DNA of 64,000 nt from Botryllus schlosseri (taxonomy: Eukaryota): the NCBI GenBank assembly GCA_051294905.1, contig CM119371.1, positions 20,276,001-20,340,000 on the forward strand, given 5' to 3'. The position numbers and the translations under genes were made by a program. Positions 40,171-64,000 of this stretch are shown here, piece by piece. Under the pieces are notes generated by a model that was given only the letters and a program-made list of their open reading frames with translations, searched no databases and was not told where the DNA came from. Within the stretch, counting starts at the first letter, position 1, and each line of letters starts with the position of its first letter.

Positions 40171-43100
40171 GGGTGTTTTTGTCGCCAACAACTACTCTCT
40201 GAATAAATGCCAGGAATTGAAATTCCTTTGGGTACGAAACATCCCAGGCATAATAACATGCCATCATATCGATTAAAATATCGAACACCGTTGCGCCATC
40301 GTTACCACAAGGGACGGATTCCCCAACAGCTAAGATCCAGCCTTGAATGGACCCATCCTGATGTCTTGCGACAACTAGATGTGGAGGATCATGCTTCTGA
40401 CTCCTGGTCTCTATGTCGTGAGCCTGAAACAGACATATATTCAAGTCCTTACATACGAATTTTTGTTACCGCTTCCATAAAAATCTGAAGTCATCAGGTA
40501 AGGACATCCATAATATACATCAGTTAGGTTAGTCTTTCCTGCCTAATAATATTAGCATCACATATCAATGAAAGTGGCAATTATGTATTATTATGTACCT
40601 GTTGGACTAGTAAAGCAGTTAAACCGCTTTTTTGTCGACGGTTAATTCTTGCATCGGTAAGCTCTGACTGTAGTTTCAGCAGTTTGGTGAGCTCATCCTT
40701 GTCACCTTCAGTGGACTGATGAAATGAAATGGTGAAATAATTCTTACTAATTGTGGAGCACACTAAATTTGCAAGCCCAAATTTACCTGAAATATTACAT
40801 CCAATATATTTATCATATTTTGATAACTGCTTTTCATGTCTTCAATGGTGGTTGGTGCAATTATCTTCTTGAATTCTTCCCTGATCTGAGAAGAAAAGCA
40901 AATTCATAACAAACACTGATAGAAATGGTTGATAACATTAGACGAGGAGCGGCCAGCCTTTTTTGCTATTCACGACCGCGTTTCGATCTCCTATGTAGCC
41001 CACGGCTGCATTTCAGTGCATAGTTATAATGAACTATCTTCACACCAAATGCCCACGTTGAACTTTCCATGGTATATTTACAGTGAGTTATGGACAAAAC
41101 CTTGTCGCCATGACGTCTTACTCGACGGATCGAAATCAGGAGTAGTCGTGCAGATATGAATAACTATAGTGGGATTGATGTTGCAGTTTAACATATTACT
41201 ATCAAATATGTAAGCAGATATGGTAGGCCGTGGCTATGGCTGCCACGATCTATTACGCAACAAATGCGTTACGCTCACATCAAAGACTAAAATCAATGAA
41301 TGAGTTTGCAATCGCAGAGAAAAACCAGCAGACTTTTATTTGTGCATGTTAGCATTATCTCTATAGCAGACTTGCGAACTGAACAGTCCCAGTTGTCTGA
41401 TTTTTCTAATATATATGCAAGAAGGCGTTGTATTGCTCGTACACACGTGCAATTGCCAATAAAATATACGCAAGAGTTTACTTGATGACTTGAAATTGAC
41501 TCGGAAAGTTTGCTCAAAGTCACGAGTCAATACACATTTTATGAAGCGCTGAGTCAAGTCATTTTGCTCATTGACTTACTACAAGTCAAGCCACGTCAAA
41601 AAGTTGACTCATGTCAAGAGATGACTCGAGTCAAGCAACAGTGTGTGTTATAAGAACTATAAAGTGATTATATTATGGTTCCATGATATAATAACCACAC
41701 TCACCAGTTTGATATCAGTCAAGGAAGGGAACAGATCAAGTATTTCCGACAGGGTAATGTCTTTTTGAATTATCTTGGAACGTCGATGTCCATAGAGGTG
41801 GTTGAAAAGAGAGACAACTTTTTTCCAATCGCGATTGACATTCAAAAATTCACTTCGAAGCTGGAGAGAAGCTTCTTCAGCATTTAGAGTGGATCCACCT
41901 AAAATCGCAAATTTGAAGAATTCACCAAAAACATTGAAACTTGTACCTTGTAAACCATACCTGAAGTCACAAGCGAAGTATTGCTTTTGCCCCGAGGAGC
42001 AGTGCGATTTTTCAGAAGTCTAAGTGTTCTCAGTTTCTGGGACAACTTCTTGTTAAAATTACGCTAGAAAGCAAATGAAAATATGATTGAAAATAAATAT
42101 AGGAAATAACAACGAAGATTTGACTTTACCCAAGGTGGATGTTGCAAAGTTGATCCTAGACATGGATACTTTTCGATAAGTGCTTTTCCAAATTTCGAAT
42201 ACGCCGACTTTCCAGTCATGTCACCACTTCTGAGGATGTGATAGGCACACTCTTGTACAACTAGATGTATGACTTCATATGCAGCTCGTGCCTCGAGCGC
42301 CCGTCGCACTGTGTCACTGAATTCGGGTAAAGGCATCCCATGAATTTGTTCAGAGTGATTGCCGCTAGATGACGCCTGCGATATTACTATAAACAGGATT
42401 GTGTCAACTACATTTATTTGGACATATTACCCCTTCGTCCACACTTGTATCAGGCAGTGTATCTGGCACGGACAGATTGGTCATCGTTTCTTCCTCGTCT
42501 TTGCTGGTTGATAAGGACTTCTGAAGTATACAGTTGCTATGGGTAGTTGCAAAATATGACCAAATAAATTCATACCCGTTTCACAGCTGCGCCAGATGCT
42601 ACACCCTCAACGAATGGCTCTGCTATGGGCCAAGTGGTATCCGACGCTTCTGCCAGTGATTGTGCATCAACGTCGACAGATTCCTTCGGAGGGATGGTGG
42701 TATACGGCTCGGGTGATGAGACAGAAGCATCACACGGATTTTCTGAAGCCCCGGTCAACATCCTTTTCCATAACTGAAATATCAAAATCAACTTGCATAC
42801 ACACATTCAGCAGCAAATGAATTGCTTCTACCTCTTGTAATTTCAGTAGACGACGTGTAGTACCTATATTGAATAACTGCCACAGATCTTTGTCGACGAC
42901 TTCGGTGAAAACATCCGAGTCTATATCATTATCTGAAAAATAATTGACGTCAAGTCGCAAACAGAACTGAATATGGCGATAGACTGAAACCCAACAACTA
43001 CAAACACCAAACATGCCCAACATTCCTAGTCATCACAAACCGCTGCGTGTTAATATTTTGACTGATTTGAGGCCACGGAAAATCATGATCAGAAATACAG

Positions 43101-46100
43101 CACAATCCGTGACTACTGCCATCTTCAACAGCAAATGAATTCATAGCAGACTCGAAATAACAAATTACTAATTTATGGTAGTTGCAAAAAAGACGATTAT
43201 TCATGTATAACAGTTCATCAATGCATATAAAATCTGGAAAACCATCATCTTGAAAGCTGTCAACTAGGATATCACCTACGTTGTATGCGATGTTTTTGTG
43301 CAAAACTCGTGTAGCAGTAACAACACACGTGTCCAATTGACAATTCTCAAACTCTGTTATTTCCGGATAATCTGCAACTGGTGCAGTGGTTTTGTCAGCA
43401 AAAACAGTTTCGTCCTTCAAAAAGTTGATTTTTCTCACACCGTTATTATCAATCATTTTCGTACACATCCACTTCTGGTGATGAAAACTGAGACTCAGGG
43501 GAAGATTTTTGAAATTAAACCACCTTTTTTGTTTAAAAAATCCATTCTTAGCCTCATATCTCATACAATTATGAAAACCAAGGGGACCAAACGCCAACAA
43601 TTGCCATGACATGTGTACAAGAAAATGCATTTTGGGAGTAAATGACAAAGTTGCATACAATCGCTTAAATTCTTCATTGTGGATAGCTATCAAGCAAGTT
43701 AGGTCATACGCCACATTGGGTGAACTGACAAAAGAAAATGACACCTGCACAATTTTAAGCAGTCGAACTAAATTCATCCAGTATAAATTCTCATCAGTCA
43801 TAGACGGACCAATAATGAATGGTAGGGTATGCAATAGTACGAACATACTTGCAGCAGTCTGGGGCAGATTTGAGCTTGGCTGCAAATGCTTTCGTTCAAT
43901 AATCTGTGGCTTATCTTTCATAAAGTTATCGCTGTACTCAAAATTCTGTAATTGATGATTCAAGTGAGATAATGATAATGACCCAACGTCTATATGATGC
44001 AATAAAAATGCCTTGAGCTCCATTTTCACAATGCCTTCTAGGAGTAGATGCATTGGATCCAGCAGTACTCCCTTGGTGACATCAAAATAAGGAATGTCAC
44101 TCAGGAAAGTTCTATTGTTTATGCCTAATTGTTGAGAGAGTTCGGATCGTTCAGCATTTCTGGGACAGCGCCGCAGGGCTTCTAGTCGCTCATTATGTTG
44201 CTCTTTCGAGCGAATAGGACAGTTCTCATGAGCATTGTATTCAGCCATTTCTTGCTTGTGCACATCACAAGTCCGACAAGGTTTATCGGCCCCACCAACA
44301 CCTTCTTTGAATCCAGCCAACTGCTGTGCAGCAGGTGTATCCGCAATACAAAACAACAAAAAACCATGAATCAACTGCTTGGAGCCATTTATAGTCAGAA
44401 TTACTCCTTCAGACAACAATTTTATGGCATTTACAAAATCTTGCAAAATAGCATTGTGGCCAGAAAATGCTTTCAGGTCAACAGACTTTGCGAGGCACAG
44501 TAGTTGCATGCTTTCTAGTTTGCTACGGCAATGGTTTGGGATATTCAACAACGACCAATAATATGCAGTTATTTTGTGTTTTTTTCTGTGCGCTCCAATC
44601 GGATTAACTATTTCAAATTCATCACAATATAGTGCAAACAAAAGACAGTCTGGATAACGAACAATGCCCTCGTGAGTTTTGATAAATTTACCTTGCCACA
44701 CATCTTTCATTACATCAAACTTGTGATGCGCAACATATGGGGACATTTGAACAATTTCTGTGCCACTTAGTACGGCTAACAACTGCTTCAGAAAAGGCAC
44801 AAAGTATCCAGTGGCAGGTTTTTTCACAATACGGTAATTCCTGCCATATCTTTTATTTATCGTTCGAGAACCTAGCACCACCGTTTCCGGATTGACGAGA
44901 TTGAAATGCTCTTGGTAAAACGTTTGCCGGGATTCTTTGGTTTCCAAGCAAGAGAATATATTTATAGGATCCAGAAGTGATGCACCTCCAATCGAATTGC
45001 TTGGTAAAAAATTTTGGTAATTTGCTAATGCAGCATCCAGCATAGATCCATTGGAAGTTAAAATATCTGCCACCCCAGCATCGGAAAGTTTATGAATAGT
45101 GTTCAATCTCAGCAAAAGTGCAGCTTGAGGTAATACCAGAGTCATGGGGAAAGTGACGACAGGACTTTCAATCAGCGGTAATGGAAGATCACATTCCATA
45201 CCTTCTGATGAAGAATCTAATGCAGTTACTCCATCGACGAGGTCATTCAAATCAATTTCAGCCTGTCCGTTATGATGTGTCCTACAGTGATTTTTGAACC
45301 GATTATGATTTTCAAATCTTTTCCGACAAACCGTGCAATTCAAGATCAAACTTGGATGATCGTTGTGGCGCTTCAGCAAGTGTTTTCCAAGCTCATCTGG
45401 ACTACCAAAAAATGAGCACAGCCGACAGTATTGTAGACGTGACATTATATGAGGAACTTGAGATCGGTACAGTATTATTTCTGCATTAATAGCATATATC
45501 TGTAAAATTTATATTAATGATTACAATTGGTATTAACATTCAACCCCACCCCAGATGCATAAAAATGAAATGAGTGTATAGAGATGTTTCACACGTCAAT
45601 CAGGAGAAATATCAAAGCACACGAACACATCATCACTGCCAACTATACATCATGATGTAGCCTACAACGGTAATGTGAAGAAACAATAATGAGGATCAAT
45701 AATTTATATTCTGCTCACTAACAATTTGCACAAAACATATCCATGGGGAACACTGATTCTTGCTGATCAAGCAATCATGTATCGATGTTTGCAATGGACC
45801 AGACAACGTAATAACAGAGAATTTACTAGTGGAATTAAACTCTTCTATCAAGGATAGTCATCGGAGGATGAGAATAAAATGATCACTGGCGACTCAATTA
45901 TCACGTATACTACACAGGCTTTGCAGATATATACACTTTTCTAAGGTTCAGTTGTTTGCCAATCAACACTACGTCTACACCGCATGTTCAGGGGGAACAC
46001 GAATCGGGTAAGGTCATGCTTAAAACCTCTCGATGTCTAAATATGACATCAACCACCTAGACCACATCGTTTCAGTCTTCAGTACTTCATAATTAAGCAA

Positions 46101-58693: not shown

Positions 58694-59583
58694 TATATTA
58701 AAACGACGAAGGAAGACCAGTCAGTTCGAACTAACTACCACTAACACCACTGGAATCGACGATCACAGGTTTCAGTAAATTAAGTTCCGCATCGCCATGA
58801 AACAGTTGATGGAACTGCACTAAACATACATGATGCATCGTTGACGCACCGATCGACGCTCCTTGGAGTTGACTAAATGACTAGTGAGACTGACTTCCAA
58901 TTTTGAAGCTGATACATGATATCTGGAATTTGGAGTCTGAGACAGAACAGCAGCAGAAACTTGATTGCGGTGCTGTTTTTTCTTATCACATCAAAGTCAT
59001 TTCTCAATCAAACCAAACATTACATGACGAATATTCAGATGAGTTCTGGATGACTGACCACGTCAATCAATATTGGAGGAAGCGTAGTTGATGCGAGCAG
59101 AGGAAAGCAGTAGGTTGCAGTTAGTGTGGCTGTTCAGAAATTCGGAATGTTTTGTTTTTACAGGGTAAGATCAGCTTACCTTAGTGATTTATGTATTGTT
59201 GAAATCTTTAAAGCGGGCTTAGATGCTGGTATGCCTCTGAGCGGATCTTACTAGCGAAATGTCATTAAATCATTGTAACACATTGGGAGCTTGTGCACGA
59301 TCTGCCCTAAGTCAACGGTATTTCGGTCCCGGCGCTCAGGCAAAATCCGCCGTTTCATAAACGGAAAATTATTAATGGGCACACTGCTTTTTACCGGGTG
59401 GAAATTACAATAACCTGTCTGCTTTTGAAGCTGAATGGGAAATGAAGGTGTTAATATTGAATGATAGTAATTCTATAAAATCAAACGAGTGGATTTATAT
59501 AGATTGTTACGAATTAGTGATTTGAATACTTATAAATATCGATGTATGATATGATTTGCAGGCGAACTGTAACGTATCCGATA

Positions 59584-59616
59584 TATAAAAGGAAGTTGTA
59601 TGAGTCGATATAAAAG
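59584..59616 (+). promoter_or_regulatory. Two TATA-box-like TATAAAAG motifs upstream of the Merlin transposase
   Basis: TATAAAAG at 59584 and 59609, about 100-130 nt before the ATG at 59712; function not shown. Confidence 0.3.
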
Positions 59617-59711
59617 GCGGGCATCGCAGTCATTATAATCAGATGATCATCGATCGCGAATCGTGAATCAATAGCTGACAGAAAAGCGGTTATTGCGGAA
59701 CGAGGAAAATT

Positions 59712-60641
59712 ATGAATATACAGCAATTGGCAGTGACGGGCGTTATTACTAACCTGGACTGTTGCATACAATTTATGAGAGATCATGGAGTGTTGGCGAA
59801 ATCAATGGATTGCTCTCTGTGCGGGATTACGATGAAACAGGAGGTCACCGGTGCGGTAAAGGACGGCTATCGATTTCGATGCATTAATGCAGCCTGTCGC
59901 ACTACTTCAAGCATAAGAAAAGGATCCTTCTTTTCAAAAAGTAATCTGGGATTAAAAGAGTTATTGCTCGTAACTTATTTTTGGACGACTGAAGCACCAC
60001 AGCATAGAATTGTGTCGGAAAGTGGGGTTTGCGCCAGATCGGTAATAGATTGGTGTAATTTCTTGAGAGAAATATGCTCCGAAGCACTTATGCGGGACAC
60101 AAGTCAGTTGGGTGGAGACTCAATCGTGGAAGTGGATGAAACGCTGATTTCAAGGAGACGCAGAGGTACTAATGCTTCTGGACGTTCGGTTGCTTCTGCT
60201 CAAGTCTGGCTTTTGGGAGGCATTGATAGATCCTCCAAGAAGGTATTCCTTGAAATTATACCCCCAGAATTAGGACGAACGGCTCCGGTTCTTGAAAGTT
60301 TAATTGTGAAACATGTAAAACCAGGGACAACGATCCATACTGACTGTTTTGCCTCTTATCGAAATTTAGAGCGATTGGGGCAAGGTTATCGTCATCGTAC
60401 GATAAATCACAGCTACTCCTATGTATCTCCGGAAGACCGAACATTGCATACCCAGGGGATCGAGAGCATGTGGTCCAGCTTGAAAAAGGCAATCAAACGT
60501 GGACATGGTATCCAACGAGATTTATTGGCTTCTTATTTGGATTTCTGGGTTTGGGCTCGTGAGCACCCCAGACAACGAAGATTCCTGGATTTCCTGCAAG
60601 CAATAGCTTCCAATCCGAAGTATGACGTATCAAATCTGTAG
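59712..60641 (+). CDS. Merlin/ISXO2-like (IS1595 family) DDE transposase, 309 aa, intact
   Basis: N-terminal Zn ribbon (CSLC...FRC...C), SIRKGSFF, catalytic motifs IVEVDET, WLLGGIDR, PGTTIHTDCFASY, HRTINHS, HTQGIESMW, then SYLD. Confidence 0.93.
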   Translation: MNIQQLAVTGVITNLDCCIQFMRDHGVLAKSMDCSLCGITMKQEVTGAVKDGYRFRCINAACRTTSSIRKGSFFSKSNLGLKELLLVTYFWTTEAPQHRIVSESGVCARSVIDWCNFLREICSEALMRDTSQLGGDSIVEVDETLISRRRRGTNASGRSVASAQVWLLGGIDRSSKKVFLEIIPPELGRTAPVLESLIVKHVKPGTTIHTDCFASYRNLERLGQGYRHRTINHSYSYVSPEDRTLHTQGIESMWSSLKKAIKRGHGIQRDLLASYLDFWVWAREHPRQRRFLDFLQAIASNPKYDVSNL

Positions 60642-60938
60642 GGAGTAGGAATTACTTGCATCCGATAGTTACAACGACCGGACAAAAGATAAAACAAATT
60701 ATAGGCTAGTGTAAAAAAAAAAAACGGCCCAAGAGGTTAAAGCGGTGTGATCAAATTAGTAGTGGTAAATATTTTTAGTAGAATAGGGTAGCCGGTTGGA
60801 TAAGTACTATTATCAACGGGTATATTGATTTTGTCTTTTGCAGAAAAAGGATAATTTAGGATTTCAGTTAAGGAAGCGAATGATCTTGTCTGCTGATCCA
60901 CCAATTTCCGGACCGTGGTGTACGTATTTAATATTGAT

Positions 60939-63293
60939 ATGTACAATTGGGGCTTCGCTATATCATATTGTATTGTGCTGTTGGCCTTGGAAGTCACACT
61001 TGGCCACGGTGGAGCACCTTTAAGGGATCACATTCATGGCGACCGTTCGAGAACTATTACAGATGCCAGATTTGGAAGATTAACAAGCTCAATGCCCGAG
61101 GGATGGCAGAAACTACCGAACACACGATGGGAATCGTATAATTTAAGTCACGTCTGGCAAGAAACAGGAGATGACCAGCATCGTTTTGAGAATCCTGGGA
61201 TGTTTTATTCGTCCACTTTCGGGTATGTGATAGCCGAGAAGATAAGCTACAGACAATATGCCTTTCCGCAAGGTCATTTTTGGACGGATAGCAATGAATT
61301 TGAGCGGACTTGCTTATGTGAACGTAGAATAGGGTACATTGTGCCTGGTCTTCAGTATCAGGCCCTGAAAAAGACCGTAACGTACACCCGCGAAACAGGA
61401 TCTTATCTCAGATTGCATTGGAATTGGAATATGACGGACTCTGATGTCCGGCAGTTCAATCCGGGAAATAGGTTTATAGAAGCTATGACCAAATATAAAT
61501 TGGTGCTATTAAGATTGTTCGATAATTATGCCAGTATTCGTGCATCTTGTCACGTGCAAGAAGAAAACAACAAGACCCAAGCCGATTTATACAACGTATT
61601 CAATCATTCTAAGAATGAAATTGCACATTGCTAACCAAAAAATCATGGGCATGAATGTGTCTTGTGCAGTATGGTTGGATTGGTATATGCTTTCGAACCG
61701 GCAAAACCCGACTTATTGATTATGGAAGTGGATTTCTCCAAAGGGCTCGGATATTGGGAAGGCGATACTATACCTAAGCGAAAATCGTGGTGGGATATTG
61801 GTCAAGAGCGTCGCCCGGTTGCTAATTTATGGCCAAGAGAAACTAATCAGGCATGGTGGGTAGTGCTACCAGAGCGTGTTAAATGGTTGCTTCCCCTTTA
61901 CGCATATGATAAAGTTCAAGATTTGAGAGACGGTCTTCCACGCAGGACACAGGGGTGTCTTCCGTTATATTCTGAATTTCCATCCATGACCAGAACTGAT
62001 GAAGAATGTAAAGCCCGTGTGCTGGCAAATGCCGAGCGTTGTCGTGACCCTGTCGGTGGATTAGAAATTAAATTAGCGCATTTTGATCACATTCATTACG
62101 ATACGGAAAATGGAGCTTTGAGATTTCCTGGGCCACCGCTGATGATCAAGGGTCACGGTAGGAGTGAAATGCGTGGCATACAGTCTTCCAAACGTACTAA
62201 ATCTCGAAAGAAAAGGTTCTTGTTTTTTGCATTAATAATGGTTTTTTCGTCAATTTTTACATTAACTGCCGCATCAACATTACAGAGTGAGTTTAATGCT
62301 AGGACGAAAGATCTTACTGACCAGTTGAACACTAGGTTTACATTGTTAGAGAGTGATCTTAAGGAAGTGGCCGACAAAGTTAACCAACTCGCAGCGGTAA
62401 CGGTGTCCCAGGGTCAAAATCTAAATCAAGTAATCATAGGAATGTTAGAACATGAGCGAACGCGCGACGCCCAACTTGAGGCCATTATTGCCCAAGTTCA
62501 TGAAAACAAGAATATGATAATAGCTCAAGCAGACTTGTATTTTTCTACTATTCAAACTGTGCACTCTATGACGATCGCAGAAGTGGCTGTAAATGATTTG
62601 ATTATTTCAAAGTTACAAAATAGCACGGGAAAAGCTATTTTTGATTCAACCAAAGCTTATTTAGTGCGAATTAAAAATGGACTAATACATTTGAAAGAGC
62701 ATGGCCAATTGATAACCGCGTATCAGTTGGATTATCGGAATTTTTCTAATCATCAAGGTCAAATTTTAAAGGCGGCGCGTGAAAAATTGAATGACACCAT
62801 GGCAGAGACTGAATATAGGGTTAAGGTTTACCAACAAGGGGTGAATAGCACCTTAGTTTTGAACACTACCGAGTTTAGCCACGATAACATAACCTTCATT
62901 TCCTTGAACGGCTCGATAGGAAAAGAACTATTCCAAGATATAGGATATGGCATAAAAACTGTAGCTGAGGGCACCGGCCATGTGATTAGTGAAATTTTGC
63001 AAGATACGGGAACTCTAATTAAGACAGGTGTCGATGGAGTTGGAGATATGATTGGTACCGGGCTAGGATCTATTTTTGGGGGATTAGGAAAATTTCTAAT
63101 TCCGATTGGCATAGTATTGGGTGCATTAATAATAATTTATTGTCTGATAAAATTCTCCCCAGGTTGTAAAAGTCGAAAAACTACGATAGCTGAAAGGAAT
63201 AATCATACTGAAATGGCTACTTTTGTCACAACCGTTGTACCACGCCGAAATATCGTTAAAAAAGTAGTGCGGCGATCTGAGTATAATGTATAA
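60939..63293 (+). CDS. Virus-like class I membrane-fusion (envelope) glycoprotein, about 784 codons, interrupted by one in-frame TAA (61632-61634)
   Basis: ORFs 60915-61634 and 61662-63293 share one frame. Signal peptide MYNWGFAISYCIVLLALEVTLG; Cys/Trp-rich N-terminal subunit; KSRKKR|FLFFALIMVFSSIF (furin site 62205-62216, then hydrophobic peptide); heptad helix; N-glycosylation sequons; Gly-rich membrane-proximal region; TM FLIPIGIVLGALIIIYCLI; short tail. Confidence 0.8.
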
Positions 63294-63371
63294 ATTTTGT
63301 GCGATCTTACTTATAGTTGCAAATATTTAGAAATAGACTTAACCTATACATATTGTATTGAGGATATCATT

Positions 63372-64000
63372 ATGAAGCCAAGTGTCTGTCTTAATTTCGG
63401 GATGTGTTTCGTAACATGTGCCCTGTTCGCGCGGGGTGAAAAAGATAATTGGACATTGGCTGACTTGAAGATTCAACCAATCACGAGGCTGAATTACGAC
63501 CTATGGATAAATACTACGACGCGGTTGTCGGAACGAATAGCTCTGCAAGATTTGTTCCAATTGCCGAAGCTTGAGGGATCCTTGAATTCAACAAAATGGG
63601 AATCAAGACGATATGGTATGATTTCATCGAAAAATCGTACAATTAGCGAAAATCTCCAACCCCGTGGTAAATACTGGACCGATCCTGTAGCGTTAGAGCA
63701 ACAATGTCTGTGTGTTCGATCATTGGCTTTGGTTAGGCCGAGTTTGCAATACAGTAATCTATTCAAAAATGTCACCTATCATAGGAAACCACAATCCGAT
63801 TTAAGACATATGTTAGTTTGGGCGGAAACACCTGATTCATTAAGGCGGAATAATAATTTAAATGTATATAATGGCGTTATGACAATTTATAAATTTCTGC
63901 TCATTAAGTTACTACAGCGGCATTTGGTTGTTCAGGCCTCTTGTGAAAACACTGATGAGAATGATTTGGCTGGATCCACAGATTTCCCGATGAATATATT
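63372..64000 (+). CDS. Second, paralogous glycoprotein gene (partial; open to the window end, not in the ORF track)
   Basis: 209 open codons starting MKPSVCLNFGMCFVTCALFARG (signal-like); PRGKYWTD...CLCVR...PSLQY..LFKNVTY...QASC aligns without gaps to the upstream glycoprotein (37 of 95 identical by manual count). Confidence 0.8.
   Translation, partial: MKPSVCLNFGMCFVTCALFARGEKDNWTLADLKIQPITRLNYDLWINTTTRLSERIALQDLFQLPKLEGSLNSTKWESRRYGMISSKNRTISENLQPRGKYWTDPVALEQQCLCVRSLALVRPSLQYSNLFKNVTYHRKPQSDLRHMLVWAETPDSLRRNNNLNVYNGVMTIYKFLLIKLLQRHLVVQASCENTDENDLAGSTDFPMNI

Follow-up and report, generated by a model that had tools for sequence, protein, structure and literature searches.

A 784-codon frame at positions 60939-63293 (+) of the window, that is, of the whole 64,000-nucleotide stretch of Botryllus schlosseri DNA analysed here (GenBank assembly GCA_051294905.1, contig CM119371.1, forward-strand positions 20,276,001 to 20,340,000), is probably a pseudogenised gp1 gene, gp1 being the envelope-type fusion glycoprotein encoded by an endogenous mobile element that resembles a retrovirus. 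The element measures 17,780 bp (G000:C1:20335286-20353065, corresponding to window 59286 to the equivalent of 77065) and carries on one strand, in this order, an IS1595-type transposase, gp1, gp2, three small open reading frames (ORFs), Gag and Pol. An earlier note on this DNA had described the layout of the gp1 protein, and this part of it stood; what it missed was the tandem paralogue gp2 and the element by which both genes are carried.

The gp1 gene and its copies

60939..63293, + strand: gp1, envelope-type glycoprotein gene whose frame is broken by one stop
61632..61634, + strand: in-frame TAA at codon 232, a sense codon at that position in relatives

The single in-frame TAA leaves the window copy of gp1 unable to make the full protein. 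By speaking of a repaired ORF the earlier note had rightly implied a broken frame, the position of the stop having escaped it. Nevertheless, the frame is more than a chance ORF, because a copy on the C13 contig, 97% identical to that of the window, keeps all 784 codons open, because a search of the same genome with the C-terminal 543 residues of gp1 returned 80 matches, many of them within open frames of 800-870 codons, and because the ratio of nonsynonymous to synonymous substitution (dN/dS) between copies is low. This ratio lies between 0.07 and 0.25 in all 13 computable pairs (the 14th has saturated dS), and it is 0.13 for the window copy against the C13 copy. Four near-identical copies were compared, and their states differ: a premature stop interrupts the window copy, that on C13 is open, the copy on C15 shows a frame change near the C-terminus, and the one on C16 has lost its N-terminal part. 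An intron in place of the stop was considered and rejected, as the GT...AG pair around the TAA removes 74 nt and breaks the frame, and relatives read through.

Architecture of the gp1 protein

60939..61007, + strand: signal-peptide-like N-terminus, residues 1-23, read from the sequence, with a helix at 3-18 in the AlphaFold2 (AF2) model (no signal-peptide predictor run)
61089..62189, + strand: surface-subunit-like domain of the N-terminal part, about residues 51-417, with a homologue in the N-terminal half of gp2
62190..62216, + strand: polybasic furin-type site KRTKSRKKR, residues 418-426, read from the sequence, the motif being conserved in relatives
62217..62276, + strand: hydrophobic fusion-peptide-like segment FLFFALIMVFSSIFTLTAAS, residues 427-446, Kyte-Doolittle mean 2.26 over 19 residues
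62280..62561, + strand: helix resembling heptad repeat 1 (HR1), residues 448-541, a 94-residue AF2 helix with in-register predicted trimer contacts and sub-threshold profile matches to HR1 and to the influenza haemagglutinin (HA) chain HA2
62574..62705, + strand: chain-reversal region, a short helix and a beta-hairpin, residues 546-589, AF2 model
62712..62846, + strand: helix resembling heptad repeat 2 (HR2), residues 592-636, which the predictions fold back against the coiled coil
62847..62936, + strand: putatively glycosylated linker with three sequons, N642, N650 and N657; a further one, N636, closes the HR2-like helix immediately before it
62937..63083, + strand: Gly-rich amphipathic membrane-proximal stretch, residues 667-715, read from the sequence and of low confidence in the AF2 model
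63084..63152, + strand: transmembrane segment, residues 716-738, with Cys735, hydropathy 2.86
63153..63293, + strand: cytoplasmic tail with Cys743, plus stop codon, read from the sequence

The translation places every part that the earlier note had listed, from the signal peptide to the Cys-containing tail, where it had been read. Judged by sequence and hydropathy rather than by a dedicated predictor, gp1 has the build of a type I membrane protein, with an N-terminal signal peptide and a single C-terminal transmembrane segment. The sequence also holds a candidate priming site, at which RKKR is directly followed by the hydrophobic peptide that begins FLFF and at which cleavage is predicted. Seven sequons fall in the second half of the protein, at residues 561, 601, 618, 636, 642, 650 and 657.

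Conservation of this plan was followed in an alignment of 32 natural sequences of the gp1 family, in which 19 have a full-length ectodomain (at least 270 residues) and 10 are truncated fragments. Among the 28 gp1-type relatives that cover the site, 26 have R-x-[KR]-R at the cleavage column, with the hydrophobic segment next, and the ectodomain of the fusion subunit measures 288-291 residues in 17 of the 32 alignment rows. In gp1 itself the post-cleavage ectodomain comprises 289 residues. It is free of Cys (none in residues 427-715), as the earlier note had claimed. The same holds for 20 of the 27 gp1-type relatives having at least 170 residues in this region; in the rest, one Cys is found in six (in four of these visibly within the hydrophobic peptide) and two Cys in one.

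Predicted structure of gp1

The full-length protein was modelled with AF2 from the open C13 copy and the 32 natural sequences. The mean predicted local distance difference test (pLDDT) of the model is 65.4, and the N-terminal domain is confident (blocks of 85-98 at about residues 100-400). The second half is modelled as the helix 448-541, a short helix, a beta-hairpin at 573-589 and a 45-residue helix at 592-636.

The oligomer was predicted from the post-cleavage ectodomain of the window copy itself (residues 186-474 of the 543-aa frame), entered three times and without the alignment. The trimer prediction scored 0.73 (runs of 0.75, 0.71 and 0.73) against 0.00 for the best of three controls, at least 56% of the contacts agreed between runs, and the partner pLDDT was at least 67; the lack of a trimeric coiled-coil core, an outcome to which the earlier note had tied its own rejection, did not occur. 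The contacts of lowest error join the same residue across copies (282-282, 300-300, 279-279 and 222-222, in the numbering of the 543-aa frame), and predicted contacts are spaced by 3 and 4 from residue 188 to 318, with residues 322-415 packing back. Same-residue contacts together with this spacing amount to a predicted parallel, in-register trimeric coiled coil, and gp1 is thus predicted to have the central trimeric coiled coil and hairpin of class I fusion proteins.

Relatives of gp1 and the identity of its lineage

Neither Pfam nor NCBIfam holds a family for gp1 or the 32 family members scanned, none of which matches any Pfam viral fusion protein family at E<=1. An exhaustive HMMER search of 1.84 billion representative proteins returned 44 relatives at E<=0.001, and among the 10 clusters of relatives that were looked up none carries a name. 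One public gp1 relative, P0001, is 68% identical, and the longest contig on record for it has the same size, 5305 nt, as that of P0021, a gp2-type protein. A single-protein scan of viral contigs, which is sensitive to close relatives only, found no relative of gp1. As to the second outcome that the earlier note had held against itself, namely that the best homologues might be ordinary cellular membrane proteins, the relatives turned out to be multi-copy genes in mobile elements that carry gag and pol. Its suggestion of an unclassified viral fusogen lineage is supported by the lack of a CX6CC motif and by the 0 of 32 members that match viral fusion families.

The similarities that lie below the threshold concern the helix that immediately follows the hydrophobic peptide. 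With the single sequence, the HA2 chain 6v47_B was reached at E 0.039, and with the family profile the rows are HR1 peptides of coronavirus spike (E 0.059-0.45, with 5zvm_A at 0.059) and HA2 at E of about 1-2 (best 0.99). For the surface domain of gp1 no solved structural neighbour was found, and it matches neither S1 nor HA1. By protein-language features, the nearest proteins are clusters of coronavirus spike (0.91, with 196 of 256 features shared), and in another near cluster 18% of the members carry PF00523, the paramyxovirus F family; the proximity to both kinds of cluster is a lead only.

This last cluster bears on an improbable alternative, according to which gp1 would be a very divergent F-type envelope (of the kind of paramyxovirus F, baculovirus F or errantivirus Env) such as is known on tunicate Ty3/gypsy elements, and thus no separate lineage. 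F-type and gB-type env genes are reported on tunicate Ty3/gypsy elements in the available part of one paper (PMC13524379), and a furin site, a fusion peptide and a heptad helix belong to the plan of F as well. However, none of the 32 members matches PF00523 or the baculovirus F model at E<=1, cleavage of gp1 would leave an N-terminal subunit of 426 residues and a mostly helical ectodomain of 289 residues, and the elements described in that part of the paper have long terminal repeats (LTRs), which the window element lacks. No F structure appeared among the fold-search rows for gp1 (Foldseek, VIA), for which the model of the fusion half was of middling confidence.

Still less probable is that gp1 is a non-fusogenic surface glycoprotein, serving for example in adhesion or immune evasion, in which the coiled coil is for oligomerisation only. 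Such a role would agree with the fact that no fold or sequence match links gp1 to a proven fusogen, yet it leaves aside that in 26 of 28 relatives the basic site directly precedes a hydrophobic segment of 20 residues, as well as the succession of 94-residue helix, chain reversal, second helix and membrane anchor, which is the defining layout of class I. In addition, gp2 keeps the surface domain and lacks exactly these elements, which is what one would expect if fusion were a separate function of gp1.

Several points weigh against gp1 as a class I fusogen. Membrane fusion, cleavage and trimerisation are inferred or predicted. Searches of the PDB by phmmer and by profile gave sub-threshold rows only; Foldseek, run with the full gp1 model against the PDB and BFVD, gave no row at E<=0.001; and in a wider fold search (VIA) with the same model generic helical hairpins fill the list. 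None of these searches gave a significant match to a solved class I protein. In the monomer model the fusion subunit has a pLDDT of about 50-80, a middling confidence. Predictors readily set long amphipathic helices next to each other, and the mark applied to the trimer score, reached by 21 of 30 proteins solved as one-chain pairs and by 0 of 23 solved as single chains, was calibrated on two copies, not three, and on mostly microbial proteins. Finally, the surface subunit (residues 24-426, after the signal peptide) has nine Cys, an odd and unexplained number; with none in the fusion ectodomain, one of them is therefore unpaired or bonded to another chain, for example to gp2.

The 17,780-bp element

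59286..64000, + strand: left 4.7 kb of the element; the C1, C15 and C13 copies share both ends, and their flanks and 8-bp duplications differ
59278..59285, + strand: left target-site duplication ACACATTG; its right counterpart lies beyond the window, at the equivalent of 77066-77073
59286..59300, + strand: left terminal inverted repeat GGAGCTTGTGCACGA, 15 bp; the right end, as reverse complement, is GGGGCTGATGCACGA, 12/15 identical
59712..60641, + strand: IS1595-family DDE transposase gene, 309 aa, with CxxC...CxxxxC near the N-terminus and a match to PF12762 (2.1e-16)
63372..64000, + strand: beginning of the gp2 gene, for a paralogous type I glycoprotein of 713 aa; the gene runs to the equivalent of window 65513
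Equivalents of window 67040-67954 and 68876-69466, + strand: small ORFs matching PWP3A-B_C (PF20886)
G000:C1:20349509-20352622, the equivalent of window 73509-76622, + strand: Pol, 1038 codons, in the order protease, reverse transcriptase (RT), RNase H and Tpt1-like domain

The boundaries of the element were drawn from three copies. Both ends start with GG, the inverted repeats are imperfect, and each copy has its own 8-bp duplication, namely ACACATTG, GGCTTGAG and GAAAATAT. The left flank in the window (58886-59285) belongs to a repeat present in at least 40 copies at about 90% identity, and in all three paralogous flank repeats that were fetched one ACACATTG leads straight into the right flank of the window, with no element between them. 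These repeats are therefore empty sites, by which the insertion is confirmed. One copy of the flank repeat, at G000:C1:21108654-21109130 and thus 770 kb away, is 100% identical over 400 bp and forms an exact empty site; it may derive from a recent duplication of the locus in its state before the insertion.

The transposase matches NCBIfam NF033547 with 89 bits against a cut-off of 75, over profile positions 2-211 of 215. The Gag-like ORF has 796 codons and a CX2CX4HX4C (CCHC) knuckle. Pol has a DTGS protease motif and matches to RVT_1 (2e-18), RT_RNaseH_2 (4.1e-18) and RT_RNaseH (5e-16). At its C-terminus, at about residues 873-1027, lies an RNA 2'-phosphotransferase (Tpt1/KptA) domain, matched by PF01885 (PTS_2-RNA) at 2.7e-07, with 31.2 bits against a cut-off of 26 over profile positions 73-175 of 177; the NCBIfam match to Tpt1 (5e-10) stays far under the equivalog cut-off. 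Behind RT and RNase H, this Tpt1-like domain occupies the place that integrase has in retroviral Pol. Pfam gave no integrase (rve) match in Pol or in any scanned ORF of the element, and a self-comparison of the 17,780 bp with blastn gave no repeat at E<=1e-3, hence no LTR. The window holds no tRNA gene, and the element contains no further sense-strand ORF of at least 80-90 codons, ORFs of that size being only short antisense ones.

All eight ORFs show purifying selection when the C1 copy is compared with the C15 and C13 copies, with dN/dS of 0.08-0.30 at dS of 0.06-0.31, and for the transposase dN/dS is 0.08-0.10. In the C13 copy a 20.6-kb insertion lies within gag (G000:C13:14920277-14940931), with 6 bases at the join that can be aligned to either side.

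The N-terminal halves of gp2 and gp1 are homologous (29% identity over 309 residues, E 3e-31); gp2 has neither the conserved cleavage site nor the hydrophobic fusion peptide. In every lineage that was read, gp1 is followed by gp2, which is probably an attachment or regulatory partner of gp1. Pfam has no family for gp2 or Gag, and NCBIfam has none for Gag. The three small ORFs, all under purifying selection, have 228, 304 and 196 codons. ORF304 and ORF196 match PWP3A-B_C, the C-terminal domain of PWWP3A/B DNA-repair factors (PF20886, at 6.5e-09, above the cut-off, and at 5e-06, about at the cut-off); ORF228 has no Pfam match and resembles the other two by eye.

The element family in the genome and elsewhere

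Genome counts were taken on the 63 strongest of 80 gp matches, the 89 strongest of 122 transposase matches and the 44 RT-bearing among 79 Pol matches. At least 63 gp copies are thus present, and in 61 of the 63 a transposase match on the same strand starts within 6 kb upstream, mostly at 1.9-2.2 kb. The position of Pol varies: it is found about 9-14 kb downstream, as in the window element, about 20 kb downstream, or about 33-35 kb downstream. In the lineage with the most distant Pol, a second transposase gene lies about 20-23 kb downstream, at near-constant spacing in a dozen copies, which suggests units of about 40 kb. Examples are G000:C4:22817652-22857127, C5:19555182-19594358, C14:11659173-11698510 and about nine more loci, in which the transposase is followed by gp1 (+1.9 kb), a more distant second transposase paralogue (+22.5 kb) and Pol (+35 kb).

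In seven cases Pol lies directly upstream, in the order Pol-Tnp-gp1-gp2 (Tnp, transposase), the Pol and Tnp matches lying about 127 bp apart; gag is found upstream of Pol. The homology of two such copies ends about 500 bp after gp2, at a terminus which, as reverse complement, reads GGAACTAGTGCACTA and shares the end motif GGNNCTNNTGCAC with the window element. Two pattern searches for the left end of this lineage gave no match, the homology continuing past the DNA compared. The orders Tnp-gp1-gp2-accessory-gag-pol and gag-pol-Tnp-gp1-gp2 are therefore, as far as mapped, circular permutations of each other. In the element copy at C1:7.14 Mb no Pol frame follows gag. The first 290 bp of the element (window 59286-59575) have at least 40 matches in the genome at 70-96% identity, many of them from the first base of the element. 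This set goes beyond the four near-identical copies, and some of it may be non-autonomous derivatives or other lineages.

Elsewhere, the five nearest public relatives of Pol, at 36-39% identity, lack integrase Pfam families, and two of them carry PF01885. For three of the five, the longest contigs on record (1,340,851, 246,134 and 1,287,913) have the same sizes as those of gp relatives. Among the matches that follow, which share no more than 26% identity, are ordinary integrase-bearing Pols of Ty3/gypsy type. A word-index search for relatives of the transposase among public proteins found none at a threshold of 1e-15. An unrelated DNA transposon lies at window 42998-45445 (-): its 815-codon open frame encodes a transposase domain of the Plavaka (Kyakuja-Dileera-Zisupton) type (PF18759, 1.9e-07) together with a C2H2 finger.

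How the element may replicate

The main rival explanation concerns the element as a whole. On this account, which is unlikely although it is the strongest of the alternatives weighed here, the unit would be a large Merlin/IS1595-type DNA transposon that moves by DNA-only cut-and-paste, with the gag, pol and gp genes as cargo, for example for particle-mediated horizontal transfer or for an effect at the level of the host; gp1 might still be a fusogen. In its transposase, its termini and its 8-bp duplication the unit does agree with the IS1595/Merlin group, as far as the consulted part of PMC8101967 describes that group. There are no LTRs, no primer-binding site was identified (no dedicated test having been made), and relatives of about 40 kb with a second transposase gene are long for an RNA genome. 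Two further points weigh against the preferred reading. A role for reverse transcription in transposition is deduced from the genes present and the selection on them alone, and four RNA runs with the same species label gave 2, 2, 0 and 0 reads on the 10-kb stretch. These counts give no sign of transcription; with no second stretch by which the organism could be recognised in the samples, they say nothing on expression.

The DNA-only account is disfavoured because purifying selection on Gag, Pol and both gp genes is as strong as on the transposase in the same copies. The gene set is also conserved among lineages that are merely 35-55% identical in protein; the nearest Pol relatives elsewhere are likewise without integrase, with contig sizes on record that match those of gp relatives; and at least 63 copies, with dS of 0.06-0.3 between copies, fit replicative spread.

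Given tentatively, and at somewhat under even confidence, a further-reaching reading sees in these elements a new class of retrovirus-like agent. An IS1595/Merlin-type DDE transposase, with short inverted ends, would take the place of the integrase/LTR module, and the class would have its own unclassified class I fusogen family (gp1), along with gp2 as a paralogous glycoprotein for attachment. The permuted gene orders would fit a circular double-stranded DNA intermediate that arises by reverse transcription and is then opened and pasted by the transposase. On the preferred reading, the element would form Gag particles and reverse-transcribe its own RNA, after which the IS1595-type DDE transposase, acting on the inverted ends, would perform the integration step that falls to integrase in retroviruses. 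Gag, Pol and both glycoproteins would serve replication and cell-to-cell spread, and the permuted gene orders would point to a circular DNA form.

In intact copies, the signal peptide would direct gp1 to the endoplasmic reticulum, where the protein would be N-glycosylated. A furin-type protease would then cut after RKKR(426), yielding a surface subunit of about 400 residues and a membrane-anchored subunit of 358 residues that begins with the hydrophobic fusion peptide. As the fusion ectodomain lacks Cys, the two subunits would be held together non-covalently. The 94-residue HR1 helix would trimerise as a parallel coiled coil and the HR2-like helix would fold back on it, drawing the membranes together by what would be a class I mechanism.

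Comparison with known systems

Retroviral transmembrane (TM) subunits carry a CX6CC/CX6-7C loop and have ectodomains much shorter than 289 residues, the F1 subunits of baculovirus F and errantivirus Env are Cys-rich, and F proteins combine a short F2 with a beta-rich F1. Compared with retroviral Env (SU/TM), the fusion ectodomain of gp1, with no Cys, has no CX6CC and allows no inter-subunit disulfide. It also differs from gamma-type TM and from HIV-type gp41 in its 289-residue length and in having a second, paralogous glycoprotein gene next to it, and no profile match to gamma-type retroviral TM (TLV_coat-like) was found among the 32 members at E<=1. The view of the earlier note that gp1 belongs to neither family is supported by the lack of a CX6CC loop, of a retroviral TM profile match and of an F-type profile match (0 of 32).

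With F-type Env, gp1 shares its setting on retroelements of invertebrates, tunicates included, and the presence of a furin site, fusion peptide and heptad repeat (PMC13524379, in part). It departs from F-type Env in its large N-terminal subunit, in its mainly helical second subunit and in the lack of a profile match. The carriers differ as well: the tunicate Ty3/gypsy elements with F-type or gB-type env are flanked by LTRs, and the word "transposase" is absent from the available part of that paper (PMC13524379), whereas the window element has inverted ends and a transposase instead of LTRs and integrase.

The likeness to coronavirus S2 HR1 and influenza HA2 lies in a weak, sub-threshold similarity on the helix after the fusion peptide and, for spike, in the nearness of protein-language clusters; nothing is significant, and the surface domain of gp1 matches neither S1 nor HA1. 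S1 and S2 of coronavirus spike associate without an inter-subunit disulfide, and in this the subunits of gp1 would resemble them. The gp1 family presents the full class I layout, but no kinship with envelope proteins of the retroviral, F, HA or spike type could be detected, and in this it widens the repertoire of viral fusogens and offers a new case for how class I machines arise.

The DDE_Tnp_IS1595 transposase, the 5'-GG inverted ends and the 8-bp target duplications ally the element with IS1595/Merlin. In the part of PMC8101967 that was available, Merlin/IS1595 ends begin with GG, duplications are of 8 or 9 bp and occurrence in ascidians is recorded, so that the integration hallmarks of the element fit this group. 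The inverted repeats of 15 bp are shorter than the published 24-462 bp, and the term "reverse transcriptase" is absent from the same part of that paper (PMC8101967). In known Merlin/IS1595 transposons, moreover, the transposase is the sole gene, whereas the present element of 17.8 kb has seven more ORFs under purifying selection. With LTR retrotransposons and endogenous retroviruses (Ty3/gypsy-like) it shares a CCHC Gag and a Pol with protease, RT and RNase H; unlike them, it has neither an rve integrase nor long terminal direct repeats.

In the literature, Repbase and subscription journals excepted, no transposase of the IS1595, ISXO2, ISL2EU or Merlin kind was found joined with an RT, gag or envelope gene, nor was a Tpt1 domain found on a retroelement. 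As a system, the association of transposase, gp, gag and pol appears to be new, and gp1 alone is a new family of a known kind. By uniting gag, protease-RT-RNase H and env with the integration hallmarks of IS1595/Merlin, the element breaks the usual division between retroelements and DNA transposons, and search pipelines based on LTRs and integrase would miss such elements. Many copies look recent and all genes are under selection, and the system is open to direct testing in a chordate relative kept in the laboratory.

DIRS/Ngaro-type retroelements have a tyrosine recombinase instead of the integrase/LTR module, and they are a parallel for the replacement of this module by another recombinase. 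The present element is distinguished from them by the nature of the replacement, an IS1595-family DDE transposase with inverted ends and 8-bp duplications, and by the presence of envelope genes. If reverse transcription is truly part of its cycle, the element would represent an independent solution to the retroviral integration problem, of the same rank as the retroelements with tyrosine recombinases.

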